DNA of 64,000 bases. It comes from an uncultured Thermoleophilia bacterium (GTDB taxonomy: Bacteria > Actinomycetota > Thermoleophilia > UBA2241). Made by a program: the position numbers and the translations under genes. Every line of letters starts with the position of its first letter. Within the stretch, counting starts at the first letter, position 1. The stretch is taken from assembly GCA_963829205.1 (NCBI GenBank), contig CAWHHT010000005.1, forward strand, positions 8,082 to 72,081. Reading direction: 5' to 3'. Shown here piece by piece: positions 4,581 through 57,092 of this stretch. The notes beneath the pieces are model-generated. The model was not told the DNA's origin. It was given only the letters and a program-made list of their open reading frames with translations, and ran no database searches.

Positions 4581-4584
4581 GATC

Positions 4585-5409: not shown

Positions 5410-5424
5410 CGAGCCGGCTCAGCG

Positions 5425-22497: not shown

Positions 22498-24553
22498 TCA
22501 GGTCTCCGTGATCTCCTGCAGGCTCGCCGGCGTGTCGAGCTCCGCCTCGAAGCGCGGCAGGACGATGGTGAAGGTCGTCTGGGTCGGCCCCTTGGCGGGA
22601 TCGGCGTTGGACTCCACGGTGATCTGGCCGCGGTGCATCTTGACGATCCCGTGCGTCACCGCGAGGCCGAGGCCCGTGCCCTTGCCGACCTGCTTGGTCG
22701 TGAAGAACGGGCTGAACAACTTGTCGAGGTTCTCGTCGGGGATGCCCGTGCCCGAGTCCGAGACCATGACGACGACGTTCTCGGAAGTGCCGTCGAGGGT
22801 GATGAGGATCCTGCCGCCGTCCGGCATGGCGTGCTGCGCGTTCGTGAGCAGATTGGCGAGCACCTGGACGATCTGGTCGGCGTCGACTTCGGCGATGGGG
22901 TCGGTGAGGCGGTCCTCGACTTCCACGTCGACCCCTTCGTCGATGGGGACCGTGCGCAGCACGTCCTGCACGAGGGCGGCGAGGTCGGTGGGCTGCCGGA
23001 CGACGCGGCTCTGGCGCGCGAAGTTGAGCAGCCCGGAGATGATCTTCTTGCAGCGGTTCGCCTGGTCGACGATCAGTTTGACGTCCTCGGCGACGGCCGC
23101 ATCGTCCTCACAGTCCTCGAGCAGCAGGTTGGCGTGCAGCAGGAGGATGCCGAGCGGGTTGTTGACCTCGTGGGCGATGCCGGCCGCGAGCTGGCCCATG
23201 CTCGCCAGCTTCTCGCTCTTGACCAGCGCCTCCTTGGTGCTGGCCAGCGAGCGGTTGGACTCCTGCAGCTCGTCGACCGCCTTGCGCAGCTCCTCGACCG
23301 AGTACGGCAGGCACATCTCGGCCTCGGCCAGGCCCTGCCAGATCGCCACCGCGTGGTCGTGGCAGGTCTCGTAGCCGCAGGCGCCGCAGTCGAGCTCGTC
23401 CTCGGGCGTGAACTTGTTCATGCGCGCCAGGATCTCGCGCAGCTCGGCCGCCGTCGGCATGTCGTCGAAGCGCTGGTCGAACGGCGCGAAGGTGCGCGAG
23501 AGGTCGATGGCCCGGTAGCGCGCCACGTCCGCCTCCCAGGCCTCGGTGTCGAAGAGGCTCTGGCGCGCGCGCGTCTCGCGGCTCACGTCCGAGCGGCGCT
23601 TGAACACCGGCGCCTCGCAGCTGAAGCCGGCGCCCATGATGCAGCCCTCGCAGCAGAGGATGTCGAGCAGCCGCGCCTCGGTCTCGCCGTGCTCGAAGTC
23701 GGTGATGGCGTCGGCGAGGTTGGCGCGGCCGTCGGCGCTCACGATGTCGCCGTCGAGCAGGTCCTCGCTGAGGGCGGCCGCCTGCAGCATCCCGCGCGTG
23801 ATGGGGAAGAGGGCGCCGAGGCTGCCGTGCGGCGCGTCGAAGTCGTCGTGGTCGTTCTGCGGCGTGCAGGCTGATGCCTCTGGCGGCGAGCATCGTGCGC
23901 AGCTCCACGTAGGTGAGCGCCGCGTCGACCTCGCCTTCGAACTGCTCGTAGGAGGCCTCGCCCTTCTTGGCGATGCAGGGCCCGATGAACACGACCTTGA
24001 CGCCATCGGGCCCGTACCTGTCGTGCAGCACGCGCGCCGTGGCGAGCATCGGCGAGACGATCGGCGCCAGCCTGTCGAGCAGGTCGGGGTGGTACTTGCG
24101 CACGTAGCTCACGACCGCCGGGCAGGTGGTGGCCACCCAGCGGCCGGCGCCGCGCTCCAGGAGCCGCCTGTACTCGGCCGCCACGAGATCCGCTCCGAAG
24201 GCGACCTCGTGCACGTGCGCGAACCCGAGGGTGCGCAGCGCCGCGACCAGCGCGCCGGTGTCGCACTCGGCGAACTCGGCCGGGTAGCTGGGCGCGACGA
24301 TGGCGGCCACCGGCGCGGGACCCGCCAGCAACTTCTCGGTGTCCTCGATCCCGCTCAGCACCTGCTTCGCGTTCTGGCTGCAGACGGTGACGCAGTTGCC
24401 GCAGCCGATGCAGCGCGTCTGGATGACGCTCGCCTGGCCGTCGAGGATCTGGATCGCCTTGGCCGGGCATTCGCGCACGCAGGTGTAGCAGACGCGGCAC
24501 TTCTCGCCGATGGTGGTGACGAGCTGGGTATAGGCGACGTCGTCGTCGTTCAT
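22498..24553 (-). CDS. Sensory [FeFe]-hydrogenase-like domain fused to a histidine kinase (HydS-type H-domain + HisKA + HATPase); one frame break near 23860-23870
   Basis: 2x 4Fe-4S motifs (CRVCYTCVRECP, CIGCGNCVTVC). H-cluster-like motifs TTCPAV, GPCIAKKGE and CCEGCIMGAG. Also CGACGYETCHDH, HisKA AHEVNNPL, and HATPase GTGLGLAV. The N-part is in the frame of ORF 23108..24553 and the C-part in the frame of ORF 22498..24006. Confidence 0.8.
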
Positions 24554-24574
24554 CGGGCTCTCGTGCCGGCTTCC

Positions 24575-24982
24575 TCAGCCGGCGCGGCCGAGGAGCTCCC
24601 CGACCTTGGCGAGGAGCGCGTCCGCCGGGATCGGCTTGTCGAAGTACGCGTCGACGCGCATCTTGACGAGGTCCTCGTCCGACTCCGGCCGCAGATTGAG
24701 GCCGAGCTGGCTGCTGACCGACGTGGAGATGATGATCGGCACGGCCGCCGTGCGCGCGTCGTCCTTGAGCTGGGCCGAGAACGCGAAACCGGCGTCGATG
24801 CTGGTCATCATCAGGTCGGTGATGACCAGGTCCGGCACCTCCTCGTCGACGCGCTTGAGCGCCTCGGCGGGATTGGTCGCGGTCGTCACGCGGTAGCCGG
24901 CGCCCTCGAGGATGAAGCGGTTGATCTCGAGGAAGTCGTAGTCGTCGTCGACGATCAGTATGAGGGCCTGTTCAGCGGTCAT
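24575..24982 (-). CDS. Stand-alone CheY-like response regulator receiver
   Basis: LILIVDDDYDF...DLVITDLMM...K; 135 aa with no output domain. Confidence 0.85.
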   Translation of the reverse strand: MTAEQALILIVDDDYDFLEINRFILEGAGYRVTTATNPAEALKRVDEEVPDLVITDLMMTSIDAGFAFSAQLKDDARTAAVPIIISTSVSSQLGLNLRPESDEDLVKMRVDAYFDKPIPADALLAKVGELLGRAG

Positions 24983-25040
24983 CGTGTGCTCTCAAGTATA
25001 GCCTCTCCGGCCTCGGCCTCCGGCCGCCTTCGGACTCGGC

Positions 25041-25104
25041 GGCGGCCCCGGGAGGCGACCCCGGTCGCCCGGGGCCGCCTCCGCGGCGGGCCGAAAGGCC
25101 CGCC
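25041..25104 (-). terminator. Two consecutive GC-rich hairpins downstream of hydA copy 2
   Basis: GGCGGGCC-GAAA-GGCCCGCC (25085..25104) and GGCGGCCCCGGG-15 nt-CCCGGGGCCGCC (25041..25079), read directly. Confidence 0.45.
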
Positions 25105-25135
25105 TGGTCCGCCGTGTCTGCGCGGCGTCTGGGCT

Positions 25136-26912
25136 TCAGACGCGGTCGTGCTCGAAGTAGTGCGTGTGCAGCAGGTGGTGCGAGATCTCGCCGCACGGCG
25201 CCCCGAGGTACTCGTCGTACAGGGCGCAGACGGCCGCGTTCTCGTGCGACTTGCGCACCTCGCGGCCCTCGTCCTCGCGGTAGATCGCGCGCCATGCGCG
25301 CCTTGCGCACCTCGTTGGTGGTGAAGCGCGGCTGGCCGCCGCCGCCGATGCACCCGCCGGGGCAGGTCATGACCTCGACGAAGTGGCACTCGATCTCGCC
25401 GCTCTTGACCCGGTCGATGAGCTTCTGCGCGTTGCCGAGGCCGTGGGCCACGCCGACCTTGAGGTCGGCGCCTTCGAGGAACGCCCAGTCGCCCTTGGCG
25501 CCCTCGACCTTGACGGTCGCCATCTTGACGCCTTCGAGACCGACGATGGGCTCGACGTGCAGGTTGGGGAACGGGAACGGCGTCTCGGTGACGATCTCCC
25601 ACACGGTGCGCAGGGCCGCCTCCATGACGCCGCCGGTGTTGGCGAAGATGTCGGCGGCGCCGGTGCTGATGCCGAGCGGCGCGTCCATCTGCTCGTCGTG
25701 CAGGCCGCGGAAGTCGATGCCGGCCTGCTTGATCAGGGCGCCGAGCTCGCGCGTCGTGAGCACGATGTCGACGTCGCGCACGCCGCTGTCGTTCATCTCC
25801 GGCCGCGCCGCCTCGTACTTCTTGGCGGTGCAGGGCATGACCGAGACGACGACCATGTCCTCCGGCTTCACGCCGATCTTCTCGGCGTAGTAGGTCTTGG
25901 CGATCGCCCCGAACATCTGCTGCGGGCTCTTGCACGGTGCTGAGGTTGTCGAGCATGTCCGGGTTGAAGTGCTCCATGTAGTTGATCCAGCCCGGGGAGC
26001 AGCTGGAGAACTGCGGCAGACGCCACCGTCTCGCCGTCCACGAGGGCCTTCTTGAGCCGCACCAGCAGCTCGGTGCCCTCCTCCATGATGGTGAGGTCGG
26101 CGGTGAAGTCGGTGTCGAACACCGCGTCGAAGCCGAGGCGGCGGAGGGCGGCGACCATCTTGCCGGTCACCAGGGTGCCGGGCGCGTAGTCGAAGCACTC
26201 GCCGAGGGCGGCGCGGATGGCAGGAGCGGTCTGCACGATCACCGTCTTGGTGGGATCCTCGAGCGCGTCCCAGACCTCGTCGATCTGGTTGCGTTCCTGG
26301 ATCGCGCCCACGGGGCAGACGGCGGCGCACTGGCCGCACTGCACGCAGACGACGTCGCTGAGGTTCTGCCGCGAAGGCCGGGCCGATGAGCGTGGCGAAG
26401 CCGCGGCCCTGGGCGAAGAGGCCGCCCACTTGCTGGACCTCGTTGCAGACGGTGACGCAGCGGCGGCAGGAGATGCACTTGCCGGTGTCGCGCACGAGCG
26501 CCGGCGTGCTGTCGTCGATCATCTTGAACGTCTTCTCGCCCTGGTAGCGTAGCTCGCCGATGCCCAGGTCGAGAGCGAGGCTCTTGAGCTCGCAGTCGGC
26601 GGAGCGGCCGCAGACCTGGCAGTCGCCGTCGTGCTCCGAGAGGAGCAGTTCGACGACCATCTGGCGGCCGTCGCGCACCTTGCCGGTATTGGTCTTCACG
26701 ACCATGCCGTCGGTGGCCGGCTGGCTGCACGAGGCGACCAGCGTGCGGGCGCCTTCCACCTCGACGAGGCAGACGCGGCAGGCGCCGATGGACTGGACTT
26801 CGTCGAGGTAGCAGAGGGTCGGGATCTTCACGCCGGCCTGACGGGCGGCTTGAAGGACCGTAGTGCCCTCCGGGACCTCGACCTTGATGTCGTCAATGGT
26901 GAGGGTTGGCAT
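25136..26912 (-). pseudogene. hydA: [FeFe] hydrogenase catalytic subunit HydA, copy 2; conserved sequence recoverable only across 4 frame changes
   Basis: [16 protein letters not shown]...ACRVCLVEVEG, then CVQCGQCAAVCP (second frame). Then LPQFSSCSPGWINYMEHF (third frame). Then CKSPQQMF...MPCTAKKYE...VMTCPGGCIGGGGQP. Then IYREDEGREVRKSHENAAV...HTHYFEHDRV stop at 25136. Breaks lie near 26370, 26020, 25935 and 25290. Confidence 0.8.
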
Positions 26913-26930
26913 CCTTCAGCACTCCTTGCT

Positions 26931-29900
26931 TTACGAGCAGTACTTGCCGTAGTCGCAGCGCAGGCAGCGCCGTGCCTCGGCGATGGCTGTCTGTGCGGCC
27001 CAGCTGAGCTCGACCTCGTCGAAGTTGGAGACGCGCTGACCCACCGGCAGCTCCTCGACCGCATGGCGGTCGACAAGCTCCGGGTCGGCGTCGGGATCGA
27101 ATGACACGGGCGGCTCGATGTCGCGGCGCCAGAAGGCGTGGTTGGCGCCGGTCAGGTACTCGTCCATGCCCGCCGCCGCGCGCTCGCCGGCGCCGATGGC
27201 CTCGACCACCGAAGACGGGCCGGTGGTGGCGTCGCCGCCGGCGAACACCCACTCGGTCGACGTCTTGCCCGTGTCGGGGTCGGCGGAGAAGTAGCCCCAG
27301 CGGTTGAGCTCGATGGGCGTGCCGTCCACGATCGCCGGCGCGTCCAGGGACTGGCCGATGGCGGCGATCACGGTGTCGGCCTCGACCACGAAGTCGGGGT
27401 TGTGGCCGGCCACGGGGCGGCGACGACCACTCTTGTCGTAGTCGCCGAGCGCCATCTCCTTGCAGCGCACGCCGGTGACCTTGCCGCTCGCGTCGCGGAC
27501 GATCTCCTCCGGGGCCACGAGGGTGAGGATCTCGATGCCCTCGAGGTCGGCGGCGTCGATCTCCTCGCCCCACGCCGGCATCTGCGCGCGCGTGCGGCGG
27601 TAGAGGATCTTGACCGACTCGGCGCCGAGGCGCAGGGCGGTGCGGGCGGCGTCGATGGCCGCGTTGCCGCCGCCGATGACGGCGACGTTCTTGCCCACCT
27701 CGCCGGTGCCGCTGCACGTTGTACTGCTTGAGGAAGGAGAGCCCGTCGTACACGCCGGGGCCGTCCTCGCCGGGCACGCCGATCTTCATGCCCTGCGGGG
27801 CGCCGACACCGACGAACACGGTCTCGTAGCCCTCGTCCTTGAGGCTCTGCAGGGTGAAGTCGCGGCCGAGCGCCTTGCCGTACTCGAACGTGACGCCCAT
27901 GGCCTCGATCATCTTGACTTCGCGCTCGAGCTCCGGCCGCGGCAGGCGGTAGGCCGGGATGGCCTGCACGAGCATGCCGCCGGCCTTGGGCTCGGCCTCG
28001 AACACGACCGGCTTGTAGCCGAGGCGCGCCAGGAAGTAGGCGGCCGAGAGGCCGGCCGGCCCGGAGCCGACGACGGCGACCTTGCGGGCGGCGTTCTCGG
28101 CGTTCTCCTGGATCTCGGGCAGCTGCGGGTCCTGCTCCTGCTCCACCATGAAGCGCTTGACGTGGCGGATGGCGAGGGCCCCGTCGAGGCCGGCGCGCAT
28201 GCACTTGCTCTCGCAGGGATGGAAGCAGACGCGGGCGCAGATGCTGGCCAGCGGGTTGCGCTCGCGGTGCAGCTTGAGGGCCTCGTCGTACCGCTGCTCG
28301 CCGACGAGGCTCACGAAGCCGGGGATGTTGACGCTCGCCGGGCACGCGTTGGAGCAGCGCGCCTTGAACAGCGTGGCGCAGACGCCGGCCTCGCAGTACT
28401 TGTCCTTGATGTGGGCCTCGTACTCGTGACGGAAGTGGCGGATCGTCGAGAGCACGGGGTTGGGGGCCGTCTGGCCGAGGCCGCAGAGTGCGGTCTGGCT
28501 GATGGACTCGCCGAGGGCGATGAGGCGTTCGATGTCGCCTTCCTCGCCCTCGCCCTTGCAGATGCGGTCGACGATCTCGAGCATGCGCTTGGTGCCGACG
28601 CGGCAGGGCGGGCACTTGCCGCAGCTCTCTTCCTGGGTGAACTCGAGGAAGAACCTGGCGATGTCGACCATGCAGGTGTCCTCGTCCATGACGATGACGC
28701 CGCCGGAGCCCATGATGGCGCCCAGTTCCTGCAGGGTGGCGTAGTCGACCGGGACGTTGAGGTGCTGCTTGGGGATGCAGCCGCCGGACGGTCCGCCGAG
28801 CTGCGCGGCCTTGAAGGCCTTGCCGCCCGGGATGCCGCCGCCGATCTCGTAGATGAGCTCGCCGAGCTGCATGCCGATCGGCACCTCGACGAGGCCGGTG
28901 TGCTGCACGTTGCCGCCGAGCGCGAACACCTTGGTGCCCTTGCTCTTCTCGGTGCCCGTGCTGGCGTACCACTCGGCGCCCTTGAGGATGATCGGGGCGA
29001 TGTTGGCGAAGGTCTCGACGTTGTTGAGCACGCTGGGCTTGCCCCAGAGGCCCGAGACCGCCGGGAACGGCGGGCGCGGGCGCGGCTCGCCGCGGTGGCC
29101 CTCGATCGACGTCATGAGGGCCGTCTCCTCGCCGCAGACGAAGGCGCCCGAGCCCATGCGGATCTCGAGGTCGAAGTCGAAGCCGCTGCCCATGATGTCC
29201 TTGCCGAGCAGGCCGTACTCGCGCGCCTGCCCGAGCGGCGTGCTCGAGGCGCTCGACCGCGAGCGGATACTCGGCGCGCACGTAGACGTAGCCCTGGTGC
29301 GCGCCGATCGCGAAGGCGCCGATGACCATGCCCTCGATGAGCGAGTGCGGGTCGCCTTCGAGCACCGAGCGGTCCATGAACGCGCCCGGGTCGCCTTCGT
29401 CGGCGTTGCAGAGGATGTACTTGGTCTCGTTGTCCTGCTGCTGCGCGAAGCGCCACTTCATCCCGGTGGGGAAGCCGGCGCCGCCGCGGCCGCGCAGGCC
29501 GCTGGCGAGGACCTCGTCGACGACCGCTTCGGGCGTCATCGCGGTGAGCACCTTGGCGAGCGCCTGGTAGCCCTCGCGGGCGATGTACTCGTCGATCTTG
29601 AGCGGGTCGATGATGCCGGAGTTGCGCAGCACGATCTTCACCTGACGGTTGAAGAACGGGATGTCGCTCATCTCGGCCTGCGTCTTCTCGGTGCCGGGCG
29701 CGTGGCTCACGAGGCGCTCGACGATGCGCCCCTTGAGGAGGTGCTCCTCGACGATCTCGGGGACGTCGGCGAGCTGGACCTTCTGGTAGAACACGCCGTC
29801 CGGGTAGACGAGGGCGACCGGGCCCTGGACGCACGGTCCGAGGCAGCCGGTCTCGATGACCTCGACTTCGTCGGCGAGGTCGCGCGCCTTGAGCTCGGCC

Positions 29901-29986
29901 CGGACGGCCTCGCTCAGCTCGAGCGCTCCGGAGGCGATGCACCCGCCGCCGGTGCAGATCAGGAAGTGCGTTCTCACATCAGCCAT
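26931..29986 (-). pseudogene. NuoF-like flavoprotein fused to a GltD/NADPH-oxidoreductase-like module (about 1018 aa if repaired); 2 frame breaks
   Basis: Thioredoxin-like 2Fe-2S N-domain (HFLICTGGGC...GCLGPC). NuoF core ([37 protein letters not shown]). GltD part (CSNACP...[51 protein letters not shown]). Breaks lie near 29235 and 27710. Confidence 0.8.
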
Positions 29987-30003
29987 AGTCGTGTCACTCG
30001 CTC

Positions 30004-30375
30004 TCAGGTCTTGATCAGGTAGGCGTCGACGGGAGTGCCGCCCACGAGGTGATTGCGGACGATGGTGTGCACCTTCTCCCGGTCGAGCAGGCCGTACCGG
30101 TAGATGGTCCCGTCGGCGAGCGTGACGGTGGCCATGGGCTCTTCCTCGCAGAGACCGGCGCAGCCGGTCTGATGCAGGCTCACCGAGGTCACGCCGGCGT
30201 CCGACATCTCGGTCATGAACGCGGCGACCACGTCGCGCGCGCCGGCGGCGATGCCGCAGGTGCCCATGTGGACGGTGACCTGGGACTCCTTGCGTCCCTG
30301 GCGCAGGTCGATGTCGGCCTTGGCCTTCTCGGCCATCGCCAGCAGCTGATCGGGGCTGGTGATCTTGTCGGCCAT
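30004..30375 (-). CDS. Thioredoxin-like [2Fe-2S] ferredoxin (HndB-like small subunit)
   Basis: MADKITSPDQL...VTVHMGTCGIAAGA...QTGCAGLCEEEP; intact. Confidence 0.7.
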   Translation of the reverse strand: MADKITSPDQLLAMAEKAKADIDLRQGRKESQVTVHMGTCGIAAGARDVVAAFMTEMSDAGVTSVSLHQTGCAGLCEEEPMATVTLADGTIYRYGLLDREKVHTIVRNHLVGGTPVDAYLIKT

Positions 30376-30376
30376 G

Positions 30377-30977
30377 TCAGGCGCTCCTCGGGCTGCCCGC
30401 GAATTGCTCCGCAGGCTGGTCAGCCGAACGCCGCTCACTGCGTCCGCTCGTTTCCGCGAGCACGGGCTCCTCGGCGTACTGCGCCAGGATCTCGTGCACG
30501 CGCTTGGGCTTGACGCGGTGGTGGACGTCGTCGTCCACGGTGATGACGGGCGCGAGGCCGCAGGCGCCGAAGCAGCGTGCGATCTCGAGCGAGAACAGCG
30601 CGGTCCTCGGTGGTGCCGCCGATGTCGATGCCGAGCTGCTTCTTGAAGGCGTCGAGCACCTGGACGCCGCCGCGCACGTAACAGGCGGTCCCCATGCAGA
30701 TGCGGATCAGGTGCTTGCCGCGCGGGACGGTCGTGAAGAACGAGTAGAAGCCGACCACGCCGGCGACCTCGCTGTAGGGCTTGCCCAGCTCTCGGGCGAT
30801 GTGCTTGAGGGCGACCTCAGGCAGGTACCCGAAGATGCCCTGGGCGAGCTGCAGCACCGGGATGAGCGCCCCGGGCTTGCCTCTGTACTCGGCGATCACC
30901 GCGTCGAGGCGCGCGAGGAGCTCTTCCTCCGTCGGTTCCTCGTCGCAGCACGTGCACGCCTTGACCTCTTCACTCAT
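30377..30977 (-). CDS. NuoE-like [2Fe-2S] subunit, copy 2; one frame break near 30600
   Basis: IPVLQLAQ...ICMGTACYVRG...GGTTEDR, then in another frame LFSLEIARCFGACGLAPVITVDDD. The repaired reading ends at a TGA 1 nt before the ATG of the next gene. Confidence 0.8.
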
Positions 30978-31029
30978 GCGCCTCTCCTTCGCTTGGTCCC
31001 ACTGCGATCCGCTTCGCAGAGAATGTCCT

Positions 31030-31525
31030 TCATGACAGCGCCTCCTGATAGGCGACGAGCTCGGCGAGGCGGCGCGGCAGCTCGCTGCCGCGCAGCTCGA
31101 GCCGCTCTCCGTCGTCGCTCAGGTGCACGACGAACTCGACCTCCGGGTTGGTCGCGACCATCGTGAGGATGCTGGTCGCGACGTCGCCGAACGGCGGACG
31201 ATCCACGTTCCCGAGGCTCATCCAGGCGCGCACGGCGACCCCGCCGAGCTCGTCGGAGACCCCCACGTCGAGGCCGCCTCCGGCGGCCTCGGCGGCCTGG
31301 CGGAACAGGCTCAGCCCCAGGCCGGTCTTCTTGCTCCTTCTTGGTCGTGAAGAACGGGTCCAGCGCCTCGTCGGGAGTGACGGGCAGGCCGGGACCGTCG
31401 TCTTCGACGGTGATCGTGAGCCTGTCGGCGGCGCGGTCGGCGGCGATGGTCACGGCCACCGCGCCGGCGCCCGCACGCAGCGAGTTCTCGAGCACGTCGA
31501 GCAGGTACAGCGAAAGGTCATGCAT
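31030..31525 (-). CDS. Stand-alone GHKL/HATPase_c ATP-binding protein of the hydrogenase regulatory cassette; one frame break near 31330
   Basis: LLDVLENSLRAGA...ITVEDDGPGL...DPFFTTKK, then in another frame KTGLGLSLFRQAAEAAGG... Confidence 0.65.
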
Positions 31526-32259
31526 CGGCGACGCTCCTGCCGTCTGCGCCGCGCAGGGCGAGGGCGAGCTCGGCGAAGCTCGGCGCCATCACGTTCAACG
31601 GGTGCGCACGGCGCCGATGTCGTCCGAGGTAGTGGCTGTCCGAGGAGTGCAGGATGGGCAGCCCGTGCCGGCGGAACGCGCTCCTCGGCCTCGGAGCCCG
31701 GCGCCACGTGGCGGCTGAGCTCGACGGCGTCGAAGCCGGCCTCGTGCGGGAAGAGGCCGAGCTGGCCGATGACGCCGAACGAGCGGCGGTCGATGTGCGC
31801 CGCGACGGCGAGGCCGCCGTGCCGGTGGACGAGGTCGACGACTTCGGAGATGGCGAGCGGCGTTGCCATGGCGAGCGCCGCGCGCTCTTCGCCGGCGCGG
31901 GTCCCGTCGGCGGCGAGCACGAGCTGCTCGCCGAAGAAGGCCGCGTAGCCGTCGTCGGCCGGAGGCAGCGCGGCCTCGAGCTCCGCGCCGGCGGCTTCGG
32001 CGGCCGCGGCGGCGGGGAAGAGGCCGACGACGTGGCACTCCTCGGCCGAGGTGATCTCCATGCCGGCGAGGACGGCGAGGCCGTCGCCGGCCGCCTCCTG
32101 CACGGCGGCGGCGTTGCGCGCGCTGTTGTGGTCGCAGACGGCGATCATGGCCAGTCCTTCAGCGATCGCCTTCGCGACGATCGCCGGCGGCGTCATCGCG
32201 TTGTCCGCGCAGGGCGAGAGCGCCGTGTGGATGTGCAGGTCTGCGGCGCAGACGTTCAC
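31518..32259 (-). pseudogene. PHP (polymerase/histidinol phosphatase) domain protein; at least 1 and probably 3 frame breaks in the 3' third
   Basis: ADLHIHTALSPCA...IAVCDHN...AAHIDR. After SEAEER the conserved tail FRRHGLPILHSSDSHYL..DDIGAVRTR..APSFAELALALRG is split over other frames. The repaired stop at 31518 overlaps the next ATG (ATGCATGA). Confidence 0.75.
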
Positions 32260-32609
32260 GCATGGTTCCCTTTCACGCCCAGCGCGTAGAGCCGGCCGAC
32301 GATGTCGAAGGTGTCGGCGGGCGACACGTACAGCGAGATGCCCTCGGCGGCGGCCTTGGCGAGCACGTCGTCCTCGGGGCGGCGGTTGCCGGCGAAGATG
32401 ACGGCGGCGAGCTCGGCGTGGCTGGCGACGGCGATGACGTTGAGGTGCACCTGCAGCGTGACGAGCACGCCGCCCTCGGGCGCGTGCGCGAGCACGTCGC
32501 TCAGGAGGTCGGAGGCGTAGCCGCGCGCGATCTCGGCGTCGCCGTTGCCGGCGACCTCGGGTGTGAGCTCGGACAAGCCGAGCTCGCGGGCGATCTCCTC
32601 GAGCTTCAT
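32256..32609 (-). CDS. DRTGG domain protein (copy 2), intact
   Basis: MKLEEIARELGL...GYASDLLSDVLAHA..GGVLVTLQVHLNVIAVA. Confidence 0.7.
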   Translation of the reverse strand: MKLEEIARELGLSELTPEVAGNGDAEIARGYASDLLSDVLAHAPEGGVLVTLQVHLNVIAVASHAELAAVIFAGNRRPEDDVLAKAAAEGISLYVSPADTFDIVGRLYALGVKGNHA

Positions 32610-32624
32610 GACGCGGTCCCCTCC

Positions 32625-34176
32625 TCAGGCTTCACGTACGGGCAGAGCGCGCGGGCCGGCGCGCCCCATGACGATGTCTTCGGCGAGCGCCGCGCAGGTG
32701 GGCGCGCCGCACACGCCGCAGTCCTTGCCGGGCAGCGCGGCAGTCTCGGCGTCGAGCTGCGCGAGCTTGCGGATGGCGACCGCCATGTCGGCGTCCAGGC
32801 GGATGCCCGGGCGGGCGCGGAACGGGCGGCTGCGCGCGAGACTGCGCCCACCGTCGCCTCCGTCGCCGGCCGAGGCCGCCCAGCGCCAGGAGGCCACGAA
32901 CGCGTCCTCGGCGAGGAGCGGCGAGCCGAAGCAGCCGCCGTCGCAGATGTAGGGCTCGACGGCGGCGACTCCGCCGAGCCGGCCGTCCTCGATCTCCTCG
33001 AGCACGGCGAGCACGTGCGAGACGCCGGTGACGACCAGCAGGTCGTCGGCGCCGGCCGCCTGCGGCCGCGGCGCCCCGCCGTCCGCGCGTCGGCCGCCGC
33101 GCCGCGAGGCGCGGCAGGAGCGCGTCGCGGACGAGCCGGACGGTGACCGTCTGGCGCTGCGCCGTCGGCTGCTGGCTGAGCAGCGCCGTGCGCTGGCTCG
33201 GGCACGAGACCGCGAACGTGGCGTCGCGCTCGCCGAGGTCGCGCTGGAGCGCCTCCCACGGGGAGGCGAGCGGCGCGAGGTGCGTGACGAGCGCCGGGAA
33301 CTTGAGCTCGATGAGGTTGACGACCGCCGGGCAGACCGGCGAGATCACCGGCGCCGGCCCATCGCCGGTCGCGGCTCGGTCGAGCACGTCGCGGCGCAGC
33401 GCGTCCTCGTACGGGATGCACGGAGACGACCTCGCGAGTAGCCGAGCGCGCGCAGCTCGTCGAGGACCGTGGCCGGCCGGGTGCTCGCCGAAGCCGGCGA
33501 GGAGCGCCGGCGGGACGGCGAGCACGCCGCCGTCGCCGTGGAGCTCGCCGGGCGCGTCCAGCATCGTGAGCGCGCGCGGCGCGCAGGCGGCGATGCAGCA
33601 GGTGCAGTCGATGCAGACGTGGTCCATCACCGACGGCCGCGCGTCGCGCACGCGCACGGCGGCCGTGGGGCAGGCGACCAGGCAGTGGCGGCAGTCGCGG
33701 CACAGCTCGGGGACCGTGCCCAGCGACGAGGGCCGCGCGCCCTGGTCGGCCGCTTCTGGCCGCAGCATCACGGAGAAGCTCACGCGCGTGCCTTCGCCGA
33801 CCGTGGACGTGACGCGGATGCGGTCGCTGTTGCGCTCGATGTTGGGCAGGCCCATGCCGGCGCCGAAGCCGAGCGCGCGCGCCTCCGCAGGAGGCGGTGG
33901 AGAAGCCCTCGTGCATCGCCCGCGGGATGTCCGGGATGCCCGGCCCGCGGTCGACGACGTCGACGTCGAGCTGGCCGTCGCTCACGGTGGCTTCGAGGCG
34001 ACCGCCGTCGGCGTGGATGACGACGTTCATCTCGGCCTCGTAGGCGGCGATCATGGCGCGGCGCACGGCGTCCGACTCCGCGCCGATCCGCTTGAGGTGC
34101 TGCTTGAGGTCGCGGGAGGCCGCGCCCGCGCCGTTGAAGTCACCGCTGCGGATGTCGTAGTCGAGGTGCTCCAGGG
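32625..34176 (-). pseudogene. RsbW-like serine kinase (HATPase_c) fused to a 2x4Fe-4S ferredoxin, a degenerate [FeFe]-hydrogenase-like domain and a C-terminal CGxCGxxTC Fe-S motif; at least 4 frame breaks
   Basis: LEHLDYDIRSGDFNGAGAAS...VVDRGPGIPD...GFSTAS. Then EARALGFGAGMGLPNIERNSD...CRDCRHCLVACP...CIDCTCCIAACAP. Then VLDELRALGYS. Then VISPVCPAVVNLIE...AVSCPSQ. Then VEPYICDGGCFGSP...DCGVCGAPTCAALAEDIV. Breaks lie near 33890, 33465, 33420 and 33090. The start codon is unclear. Confidence 0.65.
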
Positions 34177-34564
34177 TCAGTTGCGCGCGTCTCCGCCGAG
34201 GTGGGCGTAGATGAGGCCGCAGGTCTCGAAGACGCCGGCGGGGGAGACCAGCAGGAGCGTGCCGTTGGTCTGCGCGAGCTCCACGACCTCGGGCTCCGGC
34301 TCGACGCCGTTGACGAAGCAGATGCCGGGCACGTCCATGAGCTCGGCCACGCGCAGCATCTGGACGCTGGCGAGGTTGCTCACGAGCAGCGTCTTGTCCG
34401 ACGGCCTCGTTGAGGAGGTCGCTGACGCGGTCGCCGGCGTAGATGCGGGAGACCTCAGTGCCCCCGGGCCGGCCGGGGGTGATGACGCGGGCGCCGATGT
34501 TCTCGGCCAGATCCTCGAGCTTCATGTTCGACCTCGCCAGCAGGGATTCCAGTTTCTTGACCAT
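34177..34564 (-). CDS. DRTGG domain protein (copy 1); one frame break near 34400
   Basis: MKLEDLAENIGARVI...IYAGDRVSDLLNEA, then in another frame SDKTLLVSNLASVQMLRVAELMDVPGICFVNG. The start is 34564 or 34525. Confidence 0.65.
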
Positions 34565-35252
34565 GGGCTCGATCTCGCCCTCGTCTGCGCCCGGCCGCGT
34601 CGCGCCCGCCGAGGCGGGCGAAGAACGCGGCCGACTCGAGGGCCGCCGTGATGTCCATGTACTCGACGAAGATGTCGTTGGGGAGGTGGAGGGGCACGGG
34701 CGCGAAGCTGATGATGCTCTTCACGCCCGCGCGCACGAGCGTGTCGGCGGCGTCCTGGGCGGCGCCGCCCGGGACGGTGAGCACCGCGATCTCGATGCCG
34801 AGGTCGCGCACGAGCGTCTCCATGCGCGACGCATCGAAGCAGCGGCAGCCGTGCACGCTGTGCTCGGTGAGGTCGGGATCGATGTCGAAGGCGGCGACGA
34901 TGGCGACGGCGGCGGACTCGCCCGCGAAGTGCGCGAGGACCGCGCGCCCGAGGTTGCCGACGCCGACGAGGGCCACGTCCTGGCGGTCTGCCGCACCGAG
35001 GAAGCTGCTGATGCTCTCGATGCAGGCGCCGACGTCGTAGCCCCTGTTGGGGCTGCCGGAGTAGCCGATCACCATGAGGTCGCGGCGCACCTGGGCGGCG
35101 CTGACCACGGCGTGGCGCGCGAGCTGGTGGGAGTAGATGCTCTCGACGCCCTCGTCGTGCAACGAGGCCAGCAGCCGCCGGTAGCGGCTCATCCGAGCTA
35201 CGGTCTTGCGCGATACCACGTAGGTCCCATGCTCCCCGAAGATTCGACCCAC
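34455..35252 (-). CDS. rex: Redox-sensing transcriptional repressor Rex (3' end uncertain: R-rich tail overlaps the next gene)
   Basis: VSRKTVARMSRYRRLL (winged-helix), Rossmann VALVGVGNLGRAVL, ...AVLTVP...FAPVPL. The conserved core ends near 34605. A GTG start at 35252 is proposed. Confidence 0.8.
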   Translation of the reverse strand: MGRIFGEHGTYVVSRKTVARMSRYRRLLASLHDEGVESIYSHQLARHAVVSAAQVRRDLMVIGYSGSPNRGYDVGACIESISSFLGAADRQDVALVGVGNLGRAVLAHFAGESAAVAIVAAFDIDPDLTEHSVHGCRCFDASRMETLVRDLGIEIAVLTVPGGAAQDAADTLVRAGVKSIISFAPVPLHLPNDIFVEYMDITAALESAAFFARLGGRDAAGRRRGRDRAHGQETGIPAGEVEHEARGSGREHRRPRHHPRPARGH

Positions 35253-35273
35253 TACGTTCGTTACGGAACAAAC

Positions 35274-35293
35274 GCTGTGAAATCTGTCACGAT
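35274..35293 (-). promoter_or_regulatory. Candidate Rex operator in the rex leader
   Basis: gcTGTGAAATCTGTCACGAt. Half-sites are TGTGAA and GTCACG, compared with consensus TTGTGAA-N4-TTCACAA. It lies about 22 nt upstream of the proposed rex start. Confidence 0.45.
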
Positions 35294-35502
35294 TCTCCTC
35301 CCCCTGTGCGCTTCTGTCAACTTCCGTTCGAGTGGACAAGATGGACAAACGGCGAGCTCCAGAAGTGTCCTCCGTGTGTTGTCTTGGCGCGCTCCATCTG
35401 CGTCGCGGTTTGTTAGTATCCGCTCGAGCCATGGAGGGGAATCGCGTGCCTGACGCGTCCTCCCGTCCACATCGGAAAGTCGATCTGCTCTGGAGGTAGT
35501 CC

Positions 35503-36780
35503 ATGACGGACAGGCCCGCGTACATGAAGCACATGCCCCACTTCCTGGCGCCGGTGGCGCCGATCACCATCGACCACGCCGAGGGAAGCTGGGTCTACGA
35601 CACCGACGGCGGCAAGTGGCTCGACTTCGTGGTCGGCATCGCCGTCGTCAACACCGGCCATTGCCACCCCGCGGTCATCAAGGCCGTGCAGGAGCAGGCC
35701 GGCAAGGTCTCGCACGCGCAGATGAACATCTACCGTCACCAGCCGATCCTCGAGCTCAGCGAGAAGCTCGTCGAGATCCTGCCCGAGGGCATGGACCAGG
35801 TCATGTACGCCAACTCCGGCGCGGAAGCGGTGGAGAACGCGGTCAAGCTGGCCAAGCAGGTCACCCGCCGCCCCGGCGTGATCGCCTTCCACGGCGCGTT
35901 CCACGGCCGCACGCACCTCACGATGGCGCTCAACGACTCCGCCGTGCACTACCGCGGTCATCACGAGCCGCTCGTCGGCGGCATCTACCACGCGCGGTAC
36001 TGCTATCCGTACCGCACGCCGGCCAGCGAGGATCCCACCGAGTACGCGCTCGAGGACGTGCGCCGCGTGCTGAAGGCCGAGATCTACGGCGACGACGTCG
36101 CCGCGATCATCGTCGAGCCCATCCAGGGCGAGGGCGGCTTCATCGTGCCGACCAGCGAGTTCATGCACGGCCTGCGCGCCATCGCCGACGAGATCGGCGC
36201 CTGCCTGATCATCGACGAGATCCAGGCCGGCATGGGTCGCACCGGCAAGTGGTTCGGCCACGAGCACTTCGGCGTCAAGCCGGACATCCTCACGATCGCC
36301 AAGGGCATCGCCTCCGGCTATCCGCTGGCCGCCATCGCCGCCAACCACGAGTTGTGGGACAAGTGCCTGCCGGGCTCGATGGGCGGCACCTACGGCGGCA
36401 ACGGCGTCGCCTGCGCCGCCGGCGTCGCGACCATCGACGCGATGCGCGACGAGGGCATGCTCGCCAACGCCGCGAGGCAGGGCGAGAAGCTCAGGAAGTT
36501 CTTCACCGACCTGCAGGCCAAGTACCCCGCCATCGGCGAGGTCCGCGGCCTGGGCCTCATGTCGGCCATCGAGTGCGTCGAGCCGGGCGGCAAGACCCCC
36601 AACGCTGCCGCCGCCAAGGCCTTCATGGCCGAGTGCATCAAGCGCAACCTCATCATCATGGGTACCGGCGGCGCCCTGGGCAACGGCGTGCGTTTCCTGC
36701 CGCCGCTCAACATCAGCGACGCCGACATGGACGTGGCGTTCGGCATCTTCACCGAGGCCGCCAAGGTCGCCTTCGCCTGA
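35503..36780 (+). CDS. Class III pyridoxal-phosphate aminotransferase (4-aminobutyrate/ornithine aminotransferase-like)
   Basis: GIAVVNTGHCHP, LIIDEIQAGMGRTGKWF, TIAKGIASG (PLP lysine region); 425 aa. Confidence 0.85.
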   Translation: MTDRPAYMKHMPHFLAPVAPITIDHAEGSWVYDTDGGKWLDFVVGIAVVNTGHCHPAVIKAVQEQAGKVSHAQMNIYRHQPILELSEKLVEILPEGMDQVMYANSGAEAVENAVKLAKQVTRRPGVIAFHGAFHGRTHLTMALNDSAVHYRGHHEPLVGGIYHARYCYPYRTPASEDPTEYALEDVRRVLKAEIYGDDVAAIIVEPIQGEGGFIVPTSEFMHGLRAIADEIGACLIIDEIQAGMGRTGKWFGHEHFGVKPDILTIAKGIASGYPLAAIAANHELWDKCLPGSMGGTYGGNGVACAAGVATIDAMRDEGMLANAARQGEKLRKFFTDLQAKYPAIGEVRGLGLMSAIECVEPGGKTPNAAAAKAFMAECIKRNLIIMGTGGALGNGVRFLPPLNISDADMDVAFGIFTEAAKVAFA

Positions 36781-36814
36781 TCGCACAGGCGAGACTCACG
36801 ACGCAGTCCCCGGC

Positions 36815-36840
36815 GGGCGGGGCGCCTCGGCGCCCCGCCC
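36815..36840 (+). terminator. 12-bp GC palindrome/hairpin after the aminotransferase gene
   Basis: GGGCGGGGCGCC-TC-GGCGCCCCGCCC read directly. Confidence 0.4.
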
Positions 36841-36935
36841 ACCGTCGTCTTCAGCCGGCCTGCTCGCCCGGGCGGGGCTGCCCGCGGCCGGCCGCGGGTT
36901 CGGGCCGCGCTCGTGCGCGTGCTACACTTTTTGCG

Positions 36936-37352
36936 ATGGAAGTCCCCCCCTCGCAGCCACCTCGCTTCACCACGCGCCTGCGCGTGCGCTACGCGGAGAC
37001 CGACGCGGCCGGAGTCGTCTACTACGGCAACTACCTCACGTACTTCGAGGTCGTGCGCGTCGAGCTGCTGCGCGCCCTCGGTCATCCCATCACCTCGATC
37101 GAAGAGCGCGGCGTGATGCTGCCGGTGGTCGAGGCGCGCCTCAAGTACCTGCGTCCGGCGCGCCTGGACGACCTGCTCGAGGTCTCCGTGAGCGTCGAGT
37201 CCATCGGCCCGGCCTCGTTCGCCTTCGACTACGAGGTCACGCGCGACGGGCTGCTGCTCGTCACCGGCTGGACGCGGCTCGCCGTGTGCGAGCGCGACAC
37301 CGGGCGCGCGATGCCCATGCCGGCCTGGCTGCGCGAGCTCTTCGACCGCATC
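36936..37352 (+). CDS. YbgC/4HBT-type acyl-CoA thioesterase domain (no stop codon before the downstream rhomboid sequence)
   Basis: RLRVRYAETDAAGVVYYGNYLTYFEVVR...LPVVEARLKYLRPARLDD hot-dog fold. The frame stays open through a Pro-rich linker into the rhomboid N-terminus. Confidence 0.7.
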
Positions 37353-37457
37353 CCGCGGGACGGCCGAGGCGGCCCCGTGAGCAGCGTGCCGCCACAGCCC
37401 CCGGAGCCCCCGGAGTCGCCCTTCTCCGGCGATCTGCCGCCCGATTTCGACACGCGC

Positions 37458-38380
37458 ATGCCCGACGACATCGAGGTCAAGCACTGCTACCGGCACCCGA
37501 TGCGGGAGACCGGAGTCTCGTGCTCCAACTGCGGCCGCCCGATCTGCCACGAGTGCATGATCCCGGCGCCGGTCGGCTTCCGCTGCCCCGAGTGCGTGCG
37601 CGAGCAGAACGTCGCCCGGCTCGCGCGCCCGGGTCGTCACGCGGGCCCAGACGCGCTCGCGCTGGGGCTCCGGCGGCGTCGCCGGCTCCGGCGGGCTCTC
37701 GGCGACCAAGGTGCTCGTCGCCATCAACGTGGTGATGTTCCTCATCGAGGTGGTCACCGGCGCCACCGCCATCATGGGCGGCGGCTCGTCGCAGGCGCTC
37801 GTCAATCTCGGCGCCCTGTACTCGCCCTACGTGCTCCTCCGGCACGAGTACTGGCGCATGTTCACCTGCCTGTTCCTGCACGACGGCCTCCTGCACATCG
37901 CCTTCAACATGTGGGCGCTGTGGATCATCGGCAACTTCGTGGAGGCCGCCCTCGGGCGCGCTCAAGTTCCTCGTCGTCTACTTCGTGTCCGGCTTTGCCG
38001 GTTCCGTGCTCGTGCTGGTGGCGGCCCCGGTCAACACGCTGGTGGTGGGCGCCTCGGGGGCGATCTTCGGCATCTTCGGCGCCCTGGCCGTGCACGCGTT
38101 CCTCAACCGCGGCCGCGACCTGCAGTCTCGCGCCCTGCTCGGCAACATCGTGTTCCTGCTGGTCATCAACCTCGTGTTCAGCTTCACCGCCGGGTTCGTG
38201 TCGTGGCAGGCGCACGTCGGCGGCCTCGTGGTGGGCGGCGTGACGACGTTCGTGCTGATGCGCGGCGGCCGCAGGGACCCGCGCGGGTCCTTCGATGCCG
38301 TCGACATCGTGACCGTCCTGGCGATCGTCGCGGTGCTCGTGGCGGTCACCTGGTGGCGCGTGACGACGCTCGTCGTCTGA
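37458..38380 (+). pseudogene. Rhomboid family intramembrane serine protease with N-terminal zinc ribbon; 2 frame breaks
   Basis: CYRHPMRETGVSCSNCGRPICHECM...CPEC. Then LVAINVVMFLIE...EYWRMFTCLFLHDGLLHIAFNMWAL. Then LKFLVVYFVSGFAGS...GASGAIFGIFGA...AHVGGLVVG. Breaks lie near 37625 and 37958. Confidence 0.75.
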
Positions 38381-38449
38381 GCGGCGGGGCGCACCCGTGA
38401 CGCAGCGATCCGACGACCCAGGGAACCACGCGCGCCGCGACCTCCTCTC

Positions 38450-39650
38450 GTGGCGCCGGGGGCCGTGCTCGTGCCGGCCGCCGAGGCCAGCGCCCGCCTC
38501 GCCGGCCTGCAGGCGACCCTCGCGTCGCGTGGCCTCGACGCCGCGCTGCTCGTGCAGAACGCCGACCTCTACTACTTCAGCGGCACGGTCCAGCAGTCGT
38601 ACCTGTACGTGCCGGTCGAGCGGGGAGGCCACGCTGTTCGTGCGCAAGCTCGCCGAGCGCGCCCGCCTCGAGTCGCCGCTCGACGCCGTCGTCGAGCTGG
38701 CGAGCCCGCGCGACTTGCCGCGGCTCATCGCCGAGCGCTACGGCGCCCTGCCGCGGCGCGCCGGCCTCGAGCTCGACGTGCTGCCGGTGGCGGACTTCCG
38801 CCGCCTCGAGAGGCTCTTCCCGGAGGCGGCCTTCGAGGACGTCGGCCGCGACATCGTGCGCCAGCGCGCCGTCAAGTCGCCGTGGGAGGTGGAGCGCATC
38901 CGCGCCGCGGCGGCCGTGACCCTCGGCGTCTACGAGCTCGTCCCCGGCATCCTGCGCGAGGGCCTCACCGAGGCCGAGTTCGCCGGCAGGGTGGAGGCCG
39001 AGGCTCGCCGCCTCGGCCACGAGGGCTTCATCAGGATGCGCGGCTTCAACCAGGAGATGTTCTACGGCCAGCTGCTGACCGGCGCGAGCGGCTGGGCCTC
39101 CAGCTACCTCGACACGCCGCTGGCGGGCACCGGGCTCAGCGCCGCGATCGCCCAAGGCGTCAGCTTCAAGCCGATCCGCCGCGGCGAGCAGGTCGTGTTC
39201 GACTTCGTGACGACGAGCCAGGGCTACATCGCCGACTTCACGCGCATCTTCGTGCTCGGCGAGCTGCCGCCGGAGCTCGGCCGCGCCTACGACGCGGCCG
39301 TGCGCGTCGAGGCGGCTGTGGTCGCGGCGGCGAAGCCGGGCGTGACCTGCCGGTCCCTGTACGAGACGGCGCTCGCCGCCGCGGAGGCCGAGGGTCTCGC
39401 CGAGTACTTCATGGGGCACGGCGAGGGCCGCGTGCGCTTCATCGGCCACGGCGTCGGTCTCGAGCTCGACGAGCTGCCGGTGCTCTCGGCCAGCGACCTC
39501 GAGCTGGCGGAGGGCATGGTCTTCGCGCTCGAGCCCAAGTTCGTCTTGCCCGGTCTCGGCGCGATCGGCATCGAGGACACGTGGGTGGTCACCGGCGCCG
39601 GGCTGGAGCTGCTCACCCCGGCGCCGACGCACGTCTACGAGGTCGCCTGA
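38450..39650 (+). CDS. M24 family Xaa-Pro aminopeptidase; one frame break near 38625
   Basis: The N-domain (LAGLQATLASRGLDAALLVQNADLYYFSG) is in one frame. The rest (EATLFVRKL...KSPWEVERIR...DFVTTSQGYIADFTRIF...IGHGVGLELDE...ALEP...EDTWVV) is in the frame of ORF 38397..39650. Confidence 0.8.
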
Positions 39651-57005: not shown

Positions 57006-57092
57006 ACCAACCCCTCCGCTCTGTAGGGGACTGACTCGGCTAGAACGGCCTGCGAATGACGACGGTGGAGTCTGCGCTGCTCAGGAGGCCTG

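Follow-up and report, generated by a model that had tools for sequence, protein, structure and literature searches.

Clustered +1 frame breaks in a Thermoleophilia hydrogenase locus as probable consensus errors at polymorphic sites

A dense cluster of frame breaks disrupts 11 genes in the assembled genome of an uncultured Thermoleophilia bacterium (UBA2241). We analysed 64,000 nt of this genome, which we call the window (GCA_963829205.1, CAWHHT010000005.1 positions 8,082-72,081, forward strand). The 26 breaks lie at 23861-38621 (14.8 kb); about 23 of them are +1 insertions and three are deletions. It is very likely that they are artefacts and not mutations of the organism. Probably they are consensus or polishing errors at sites where a mixed population is polymorphic, in genes that are themselves intact. 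For the way these errors arose we lean towards a doubling of alleles, in which the consensus would carry both variants of a polymorphic base one after the other.

The breaks can be found from the window alone (Table 1). We segmented the window by GC3 phase with a Viterbi procedure, independently of the list in the first-pass annotation. On the minus strand the reading frame changes at the following positions, none of them with a stop codon: 23861, 25285, 25931, 26020, 26370, 27703, 29237, 30600, 31332, 31676, 33085, 33887, 34400 and 34586. This is nearly the list that the first-pass annotation had given, and breaks are indeed present at its positions. Its count of at least 16 breaks in about 12 kb was too low: 22 of the 26 fall inside 22498-34605, and the remaining four just outside. 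Absent from its list were 32657, 33435, the deletion at 34174 and the break near 34599 in the rex-DRTGG linker, which corresponds to what had been called the rex 3' end.

The same annotation placed the concentration of breaks in the second hydrogenase operon and its sensors. This proved too narrow, as the cluster extends to 37355, 37615, 37959 and 38621. These four further events fall in opposite-strand genes for a 4HBT thioesterase, a rhomboid protease and an M24 peptidase, which makes the cluster positional and not operon-specific. Affected genes lie on both strands and include housekeeping genes. The four plus-strand events are probably most of the five breaks that had been counted elsewhere in the window.

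The remainder of the window is free of such errors. Between 4.6 and 22.5 kb, a stretch previously described as break-free, every frame switch in the segmentation falls on a stop codon and ten ORFs align end to end with NCBIfam profiles. Across the flanks, all 19 ORFs checked against NCBIfam are full length with end-to-end profile matches. The 26 events in the cluster stand against none in ~38 kb of flanking coding sequence, a concentration that chance does not explain (P ~1e-15 to 1e-30). The flanks contain intact paralogous hydCBA genes with hydF, hydG and aspA at 10.9-20.6 kb, and Ku and LigD are also encoded within the window. Two further candidates were discarded. There is no evidence of additional breaks at 1.3-3.2 kb, because Pfam shows one ordinary HtrA-like ORF there (Trypsin_2 and PDZ). 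In the non-periodic region at 56.9-62.6 kb, considered as a possible rRNA operon and a hint of long reads, Rfam gives two tRNAs only.

Table 1. Predicted genes and frame-changing events in and around the cluster, in window positions. L001 is a sister contig, L006 a long-read MAG.
Feature	Position	Strand	Remarks
Sensor histidine kinase	22498..24553	-	N-terminal Fer4 and [FeFe]-hydrogenase-like, FeS, HisKA, HATPase domains; 684 aa minus base 23861
+1 insertion, sensor kinase	23861		placement +/-5 nt
Single-domain response regulator	24575..24982	-	135 aa, intact
HydA copy 2, group A [FeFe]-hydrogenase	25136..26912	-	590 aa after four single-base removals
+1 insertion, hydA2	25290		doublet G/C, Ala third codon position; relatives show both alleles
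+1 insertion, hydA2	25935		doublet C/G; ACC in L001, ACG in L006
+1 insertion, hydA2	26021		doublet G/T, Ala third codon position
+1 insertion, hydA2	26370		G beside G, hence uninformative for the allele test
NuoF-GltD fusion, HydB-like	26931..29986	-	1017 aa after two base removals
+1 insertion, nuoF-gltD	27712		
+1 insertion, nuoF-gltD	29238		doublet C/G; GCG in L001, GCC in L006
Thioredoxin-like [2Fe-2S] ferredoxin	30004..30375	-	intact
NuoE/HydC	30377..30977	-	199 aa after one base removal
+1 insertion, nuoE	30598		doublet G/C, first codon position; G in L001, C in L006
GHKL (HATPase_c) ATPase	31030..31525	-	
+1 insertion, GHKL ATPase	31335		doublet A/G; G in L001, A in L006
PHP-domain protein	31518..32259	-	
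Four events, PHP 3' part	31584..31682		+1 31682, +1 31627, -2 (or -1) ~31601, +1 ~31584; the last three ambiguous in exact description because the stretch is poorly conserved
Small DRTGG-like protein	32256..32609	-	117 aa, intact
HATPase - Fer4 - partial Fe_hyd_lg_C - FeS fusion	32606..34173	-	~520 aa corrected
+1 insertion, near 3' end of fusion gene	32657		
Net +1 frame change, fusion gene	33082..33098		low-complexity Arg/Ala linker; exact base ambiguous
Three +1 insertions, fusion gene	33472, 33435, 33416		within 57 nt; 19 codons scrambled
+1 insertion, fusion gene	33888		doublet T/G; TCG in L001, GCC in L006
-1 deletion, fusion gene start	34174		CC-TGG in window, CCATGG in relatives; ATG start codon thereby lost
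Rex fused to DRTGG domain	34177..35219	-	split in window; one 346-389 aa ORF in relatives
+1 insertion, DRTGG part	34402		
Net +1 frame change, rex-DRTGG linker	34596..34599		
Class-III aminotransferase	35503..36780	+	intact; within cluster span, in a 2.9 kb event-free gap
4HBT thioesterase	36936..37360	+	stop codon removed by +1 at 37355
Rhomboid-family protease	37389..38377	+	+1 at ~37615 and ~37959
M24 (Xaa-Pro) peptidase	38450..39650	+	+1 at ~38621; 399 aa corrected, no stop codons

Comparison with the closest related genomes, which had been suggested as a check, shows that the breaks are private to the window. In 9-11 related Thermoleophilia contigs the ORFs are intact at every break site, and alignments with 6-10 relatives show all 26 events in the window only. 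These DNA alignments resolve the events as private one-base insertions. Each of nine relatives carries 0-3 private indels that are not multiples of three, whereas the window has 18 such insertions and 3 such deletions. One relative, L004, seems to have many private deletions, which are artefacts of alignment ends except for three -1 events in its rex gene. The same picture emerges from tblastn: intact ORFs of L006 match the window in consecutive segments and successive frames (HydA -3/-1/-2/-3/-1, NuoF-GltD -1/-2/-3). On the plus strand, the Pfam Rhomboid model is split across frames (positions 2-40 in one, 39-142 in the next), and so is Creatinase_N in the M24 peptidase (1-41 and 45-128).

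Neither genome contigs and metagenome contigs nor protein databases, searched with the corrected HydA and the fast-evolving fusion protein, yielded a sequence of the same species, and two intact window proteins had no exact match on record. The best matches share only 92-95% amino acid and 90-94% DNA identity with the window, and it is at this distance that the insertions are shown to be absent.

When a single base is taken out at each site, the ORFs regain exactly the full lengths seen in the relatives and contain no stop codons (corrected lengths in Table 1). The earlier statement that premature in-frame stops are lacking holds, as none is left after correction. HydA is 590-591 aa long in more than 100 database homologues, and the corrected window HydA falls into this range. 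It matches Pfam Fer2_4, NADH-G_4Fe-4S_3, Fe_hyd_lg_C and Fe_hyd_SSU, carries the H-cluster motifs MPCTAKKYE and EVMTCPGGCIGGGG, and is encoded together with NuoF-like and NuoE-like partners. The corrected NuoF-GltD protein contains 2Fe-2S thioredoxin-like, Complex1_51K, NADH_4Fe-4S, Fer4_20 and Pyr_redox_2 domains (Pfam). Judged by domains, motifs and partners, the corrected genes are predicted to encode a group A [FeFe]-hydrogenase module of the HydABC type; NCBI names the HydA homologues "NADH-dependent [FeFe] hydrogenase, group A6". The fusion protein is a predicted anti-sigma-kinase-like or hydrogenase-like sensor. Removing its three neighbouring insertions (33472, 33435 and 33416) gives back GTVLDELRALGYSEVVSVH, in agreement with the relatives.

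The spectrum of the events is narrow. All insertions are exactly 1 nt long and no event exceeds 2 nt. In 16 of 22 cases the inserted base differs from both neighbours. None of the insertions lies in any of the 73 homopolymer runs of at least four bases, so the homopolymer pattern of classical nanopore, 454 or Ion Torrent errors is not found here. The affected genes show no nonsense mutations. Enrichment of motifs at the insertion sites is weak: GCGCGC occurs at 2/22, CTGCSGC at 2/22 and CGCG at 5/22 (P = 0.02-0.09 uncorrected; ~0.04-0.06 each for GCGCGC and CTGCSGC before multiple-test correction), and no single motif is present at more than a quarter of the sites.

No excess of substitutions accompanies the insertions. 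Terminal-branch dN/dS is 0.18-0.22 for the window (95% CI 0.14-0.27), 0.17-0.19 for the sister L001 and 0.14-0.16 for a control gene. The terminal branch of the window is not longer either. Relaxed purifying selection on the window lineage is not supported by this test, whose power is limited and with which a short neutral phase of unusually high indel-to-substitution ratio would be compatible.

What sets the insertion sites apart is their relation to variation among relatives. Among the 17 sites that could be tested, 14 have an extra base that forms, with its neighbour, the pair of alleles carried by relatives in that column. By chance 5.7 such sites are expected (P = 5e-6), or 6.5 if the null is matched for base and run class (P = 1.6e-4); with another set of relatives the result is 15/21 vs 6.6 expected. 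The test is statistical and takes related species as a proxy for polymorphism within the population. Three to six events do not fit the pattern, and there are three deletions. Codon position was rejected as evidence: in conserved genes 7 of 7 doublets are compatible with a third position, yet two thirds of random sites are equally compatible.

These observations suggest how the errors may have been made. Two or more strains or populations, closely related to each other, would have contributed reads to the ~15 kb stretch. Where they differ by a single nucleotide, both alleles would in some cases be written in succession, XY for X or Y, and XY in place of a single base yields a +1 insertion. In this way an assembler or polisher would have lengthened the consensus by one base at each of some two dozen sites in 23.86-38.62 kb. 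Because the rest of the window is error-free, the cause has to be strictly local, but the divergence pattern, in which such a cause was sought, does not change at the cluster borders. A mosaic or recombinant segment was considered and rejected, as sliding identity to each relative follows gene conservation across these borders.

A second contig of the same lineage shows a similar pattern. L161 (ENA ERZ25039473 contig_68162) is the closest relative found (90-94% DNA identity), an independent contig with a long-read-style name. It has a cluster of its own: within ~1.8 kb of nuoF-gltD there are 15 +1 insertions private to it, and their sites differ from those of the window. The doubled-allele signature is present at 8/15 of them (2.7 expected, P = 0.0016). 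No comparable cluster was seen in six short-read-style contigs or in L006.

Could the artefact have another origin? Random long-read errors left over in a patch of low coverage or of one read, or systematic base-calling errors at methylated motifs, are an unlikely source. With ~15 kb the cluster has about the length of a long read or a patch, its flanks are clean, and GCGCGC, CTGCSGC and CGCG are weakly enriched (2/22, 2/22 and 5/22; P = 0.02-0.06 uncorrected). Random errors, however, should neither coincide with variable columns nor copy the alleles of relatives. Errors in homopolymers, which are typical of consensus sequences from nanopore reads or low coverage, are absent. A low-coverage patch should also yield deletions and substitutions, and the branch length of the window shows no excess of the latter. 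Each motif accounts for at most a quarter of the sites. The first-pass annotation had proposed a localised assembly error as one of two options. In general this agrees with our results, while its more specific mechanism, a modified GCGCGC or CTGCSGC motif, is reflected weakly at two of 22 sites each. Its other option, a very recent inactivation of a redundant second hydrogenase operon and its sensors that now gather frameshifts, is highly improbable. The sequence as given does contain every break, and redundancy is plausible because of the intact paralogous hydCBA genes. But unrelated thioesterase, rhomboid and M24 genes are broken likewise across a divergent promoter. In real bacterial pseudogenes the insertion:deletion ratio is ~0.76 and indel sizes are mixed (PMC6054270); compared to this spectrum, the ~23:3 bias towards single-base insertions without any event above 2 nt is significant (P = 2e-6). 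Homopolymer association and nonsense mutations are missing and dN/dS is unchanged. The three insertions that lie within 57 nt together preserve the frame, at the cost of 19 scrambled conserved codons; there is no mutational rationale for the link to polymorphic columns, and the pattern recurs in L161 at another place in the locus.

A real but localised mutational shower is the least probable of the explanations. Here the insertions would stem from error-prone repair along a ~15 kb recombination tract, a process new in Actinomycetota that turns mismatches between diverged donor and recipient alleles into +1 insertions. The route may be, for example, mismatch-directed cleavage followed by Ku/LigD end-joining with addition of single nucleotides. 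Clustering in a single tract, nearly exclusive +1 events and their placement at sites variable among relatives would all fit, and Ku and LigD are at hand in the window. Addition of single nucleotides is a trait of NHEJ in actinobacteria, and in Actinomycetota NucS replaces MutS/MutL. If the insertions were real, the process would have to recur in the lineage because L161 shows a similar cluster. However, rejoining ~26 independent breaks in order without loss of sequence is implausible, and a genotype that lost more than 10 genes at once would need to dominate its population. The pattern is confined to the window and L161, while the six short-read-style contigs and the long-read MAG L006 are without it. 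We know of no described repair shower that converts mismatches into +1 insertions.

Programmed frameshifting and transcriptional slippage (prfB, dnaX, IS elements) occur at single sites that are conserved among relatives and carry slippery motifs. The window resembles these systems in that one gene is read in two frames, but its 26 sites lack a common motif and none of them is found in relatives. The pseudogenes of genomes in reductive evolution, such as those of the Candidatus Burkholderia leaf-nodule symbionts, also have several frameshifts per gene compared to intact orthologues. In contrast to the window, deletions outnumber insertions there, sizes vary widely, nonsense mutations and relaxed dN/dS occur, and the breaks are scattered by gene and not by position (PMC6054270).

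Consensus errors are a closer match. Indels in long-read consensus sequences are known to cause frameshifted gene calls (PMC9262707). As in such assemblies (IDEEL-type; PMC9262707; proovframe 10.1101/2021.08.23.457338), private one-base indels split conserved ORFs in the window, correction restores full-length proteins, and L161 of the same lineage is also affected. Classical long-read errors, in contrast, are homopolymer insertions and deletions spread genome-wide, whereas here non-homopolymer +1 events are limited to 15 kb and the other parts of the 64 kb window are clean. Because homopolymer indels are absent, this is not a textbook long-read artefact. Polishers can mix haplotypes in heterozygous regions and introduce frameshifts (Hapo-G, PMC8092372), and merged haplotypes have led to consensus errors that truncate genes (Candida krusei, PMC5592916). 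Such errors appear where the read set contains two alleles; they are similarly local, frame-breaking and located at polymorphic positions, in line with the doubled-allele statistic of the window. These reports concern diploid eukaryotes and do not mention a tandem insertion of both alleles as the dominant error, which is what we infer from the sequence of this window.

Taken literally, the assembly has lost a whole hydrogenase module with sensory and regulatory genes, a rhomboid protease and an aminopeptidase. Such a reading would distort metabolic reconstruction and pseudogene statistics. Since the breaks look like assembly consensus errors, the genes should be read as intact, which restores about 11 of them. 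Going by the sequence, the second group-A [FeFe]-hydrogenase module, the sensor and regulator genes, the thioesterase, the rhomboid protease and the M24 peptidase are most probably intact and functional. Clusters of +1 insertions outside homopolymers, in which the added base equals the other allele of a variable site, may serve as a practical flag for mixed-strain consensus errors in assemblies that are clean elsewhere; L161, another public contig of this lineage, bears this signature too.

With about 70% G+C and a GC3 close to 0.95, the window shows its coding frame by base periodicity alone. When codon-position G+C was segmented with a seven-state Viterbi model, 14 minus-strand frame switches emerged in the cluster, and all of them occur without a stop codon at the switch (Table). 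Past 39.7 kb every frame switch has a stop codon, and the same is true between 4.6 and 22.5 kb, where the first-pass annotation had reported no breaks. Segment-by-segment translation finds the [FeFe]-hydrogenase motifs of a single HydA distributed across three frames. The break coordinates proposed earlier thus prove accurate to a few bases, and the observation of clustered frame breaks is confirmed and extended.

We compared the window with the closest public genomes, which are uncultured Thermoleophilia MAGs (contigs L001-L006, L081-L083, L161 and L162). They share 83-94% DNA identity with it, and synteny extends over about 17.7-39.2 kb. The genes that are broken in the window are single intact ORFs in these relatives; in L006, HydA has 597 aa, NuoF-GltD 1017 aa, the sensor kinase 684 aa and Rex-DRTGG 346 aa. 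In tblastn searches the relatives' proteins match the window as consecutive segments, with the frame stepping in one constant direction. DNA alignments resolve the steps into single-base insertions found in the window only, together with a 2-nt loss and a 1-nt loss that abolishes the ATG of the kinase/ferredoxin/hydrogenase-like fusion gene. Removing one base per site restores ORFs as long as those of the relatives, free of internal stops, and the corrected proteins have the expected domain architectures (Pfam). The 57-nt stretch 33416-33472 holds three distinct insertions: once the three bases are taken out, a scrambled 19-residue stretch agrees with L001 and L006. In the same columns, each of nine relatives carries 0-3 private indels of a length not divisible by three.

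Frame-breaking events in the window, and related loci (window coordinates unless a contig is named)
Position	Event or feature	Viterbi switch (minus strand)	Detail
23861	+1, private	23861	
25290	+1, private	25285	
25935	+1, private	25931	alleles ACC/ACG
26021	+1, private	26020	
26370	+1, private	26370	
27712	+1, private	27703	
29238	+1, private	29237	alleles GCG/GCC
30598	+1, private	30600	alleles GAG/CAG
31335	+1, private	31332	alleles GGC/AAC
31584	+1, private		
~31601	-2		
31627	+1, private		
31682	+1, private	31676	
32657	+1, private		
~33098	+1, private	33085	
33416	+1, private		
33435	+1, private		
33472	+1, private		
33888	+1, private	33887	alleles TCG/GCC
34174	-1		start codon lost
34402	+1, private	34400	
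~34599	+1, private	34586	
37355	+ strand		4HBT thioesterase, stop codon destroyed
37615	+ strand		rhomboid protease, Pfam Rhomboid domain broken across frames
37959	+ strand		rhomboid protease, Pfam Rhomboid domain broken across frames
38621	+ strand		M24 peptidase, Creatinase_N domain broken across frames
34177-35219	Rex-DRTGG		
L006:3992-5032	Rex-DRTGG		
L001:3916-5085	Rex-DRTGG		
L161:4034-5047	Rex-DRTGG		
L161:9200-12270	L161 insertion cluster		window 27726-29521

The cluster follows position, not operon. Like events persist on the opposite strand, past the divergent intergenic region. In the flanks, 19 ORFs fit NCBIfam models essentially over their full length, among them Ku, LigD, HydF, AspA, HydG, HydA1, NuoF and NuoE on the left and PPK1, SixA, exopolyphosphatase, CoA-transferase A and B and membrane pyrophosphatase on the right. 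The 14.8-kb cluster holds 26 events, whereas the flanking coding sequence, about 38 kb in all, is free of them (P about 1e-15 to 1e-30). Divergence from the relatives does not shift at the cluster borders.

In many cases the added base, taken together with the base beside it, gives the pair of alleles found among relatives at a single column. We scored each insertion for this doubled-allele property against simulated insertions in the same neighbourhoods. Under the local null, 14 of 17 insertions have it where 5.7 are expected (P = 5e-6); the excess persists under a null that controls for inserted base and run class (6.5 expected, P = 1.6e-4) and with a different relative set (15/21 observed, 6.6 expected, P = 1.5e-4). 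No such pattern is to be expected of random sequencing errors, of randomly planted insertions or of real insertion mutations. A consensus built from the reads of two co-occurring strains could write both SNP alleles in tandem, which would yield exactly this pattern. We infer that the breaks probably arose where a mixed population is polymorphic and both alleles were written into the consensus. In heterozygous regions polishers mix haplotypes and may introduce frameshifts (PMC8092372), merged haplotypes cause consensus errors that truncate genes (PMC5592916), and gene calls are broken by long-read consensus indels (PMC9262707). These papers document the general phenomenon, but the tandem both-allele form is not among their descriptions.

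A second cluster lies in L161 (ENA ERZ25039473 contig_68162), the closest relative found, with 90-94% DNA identity over the entire cluster span and probably, judging from its contig name, a long-read assembly. Most of its genes are intact. Its nuoF-gltD, however, carries 15 private +1 insertions in about 1.8 kb, none at the window's sites, and is on record as fragments of 117, 603 and 62 aa between intact adjoining genes. The insertions are mostly non-homopolymer, and 8 of the 15 are doubled alleles (2.7 expected, P = 0.0016). Relatives' contigs with short-read-assembler-style names (NODE_, Ga0...) have no such clusters. That two assemblies share one odd error type, each in its own part of the locus, speaks for a methodological rather than a biological origin. 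Another MAG of this lineage, L004 (MFD00032.bin.2.192 contig_92326), has further local indel errors, here of deletion type: three private -1 deletions in rex near the contig end, corresponding to window 34729, 34959 and 35176.

The first-pass annotation had weighed recent inactivation of a redundant operon against localised assembly or base-calling error. Inactivation is disfavoured. About 23 of the 26 events are insertions, each of exactly one base, while curated bacterial pseudogenes have an insertion:deletion ratio of about 0.76 and far larger mean sizes (PMC6054270; P = 2e-6 for the difference). The inserted base is unlike both neighbours in 16 of 22 cases, and none of the 73 homopolymers of at least 4 bases in the affected stretch carries an insertion, the reverse of what slippage mutation gives. 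The corrected genes contain no nonsense mutations or larger lesions. Their terminal-branch dN/dS is 0.18-0.22 in the window versus 0.17-0.19 in the sister L001 (0.14-0.16 for an unbroken control gene), and the window's branch is no longer than the sister's. Unrelated housekeeping genes are struck in the same way as the supposedly redundant operon. That the insertions were a real, mismatch-linked +1 shower is very improbable. Localised assembly error is supported, with doubled alleles as a narrower candidate cause; the GCGCGC and CTGCSGC contexts suggested for the junctions show a weak enrichment. This conclusion is drawn from comparative and statistical evidence; no same-species sequence was found in any genome, metagenome or protein collection searched.

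The appropriate annotation for the corrected locus is an intact second group-A [FeFe]-hydrogenase module (HydA, NuoF-GltD, NuoE and ferredoxin), accompanied by a hydrogenase-like sensor kinase, a response regulator, a GHKL ATPase, PHP and DRTGG proteins and Rex-DRTGG. The practical value lies in a quality-control signature; the biological interest is small. Rex (Put_DNA-bind_N and CoA_binding) and DRTGG form one continuous ORF of 337-389 aa in the relatives, which suggests that this lineage has a redox-sensing repressor with a fused DRTGG domain. The database protein P0172 (439 aa), an entry linked to no contig, matches the corrected kinase/ferredoxin/hydrogenase-like fusion protein at 87% identity over 91% of its length and may be a gene call from frameshifted sequence. 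The textbook H-cluster motif is TSCCPxW. Both HydA paralogues of the window (25136-26912 and 16886-18862) have xSCSPGW, as do all 131 retrieved homologues in which the motif was located (among database proteins P0001-P0136).

Elsewhere in the window, a private 15-nt tandem duplication (22462-22491) lies at the 5' end of the REC-HK hybrid gene, whose protein reads MQPDVTRESLVTRESLMD... at this point. It is in frame, is missing from L001 and L006, and could be natural or a further consensus artefact. Immediately following a tRNA gene (56930-57002), 5.7 kb (56864-62610) have a reduced G+C of 0.63-0.66, weak codon periodicity and only small ORFs, none of the eight tested matching Pfam. An element or island integrated at the tRNA is one possible explanation, poorly coding DNA another. 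At 4579-8091, Ku (a full-length TIGR02772 match) adjoins a LigD with three domains (phosphoesterase, ligase and polymerase), and the two are predicted to form a complete bacterial NHEJ pair.
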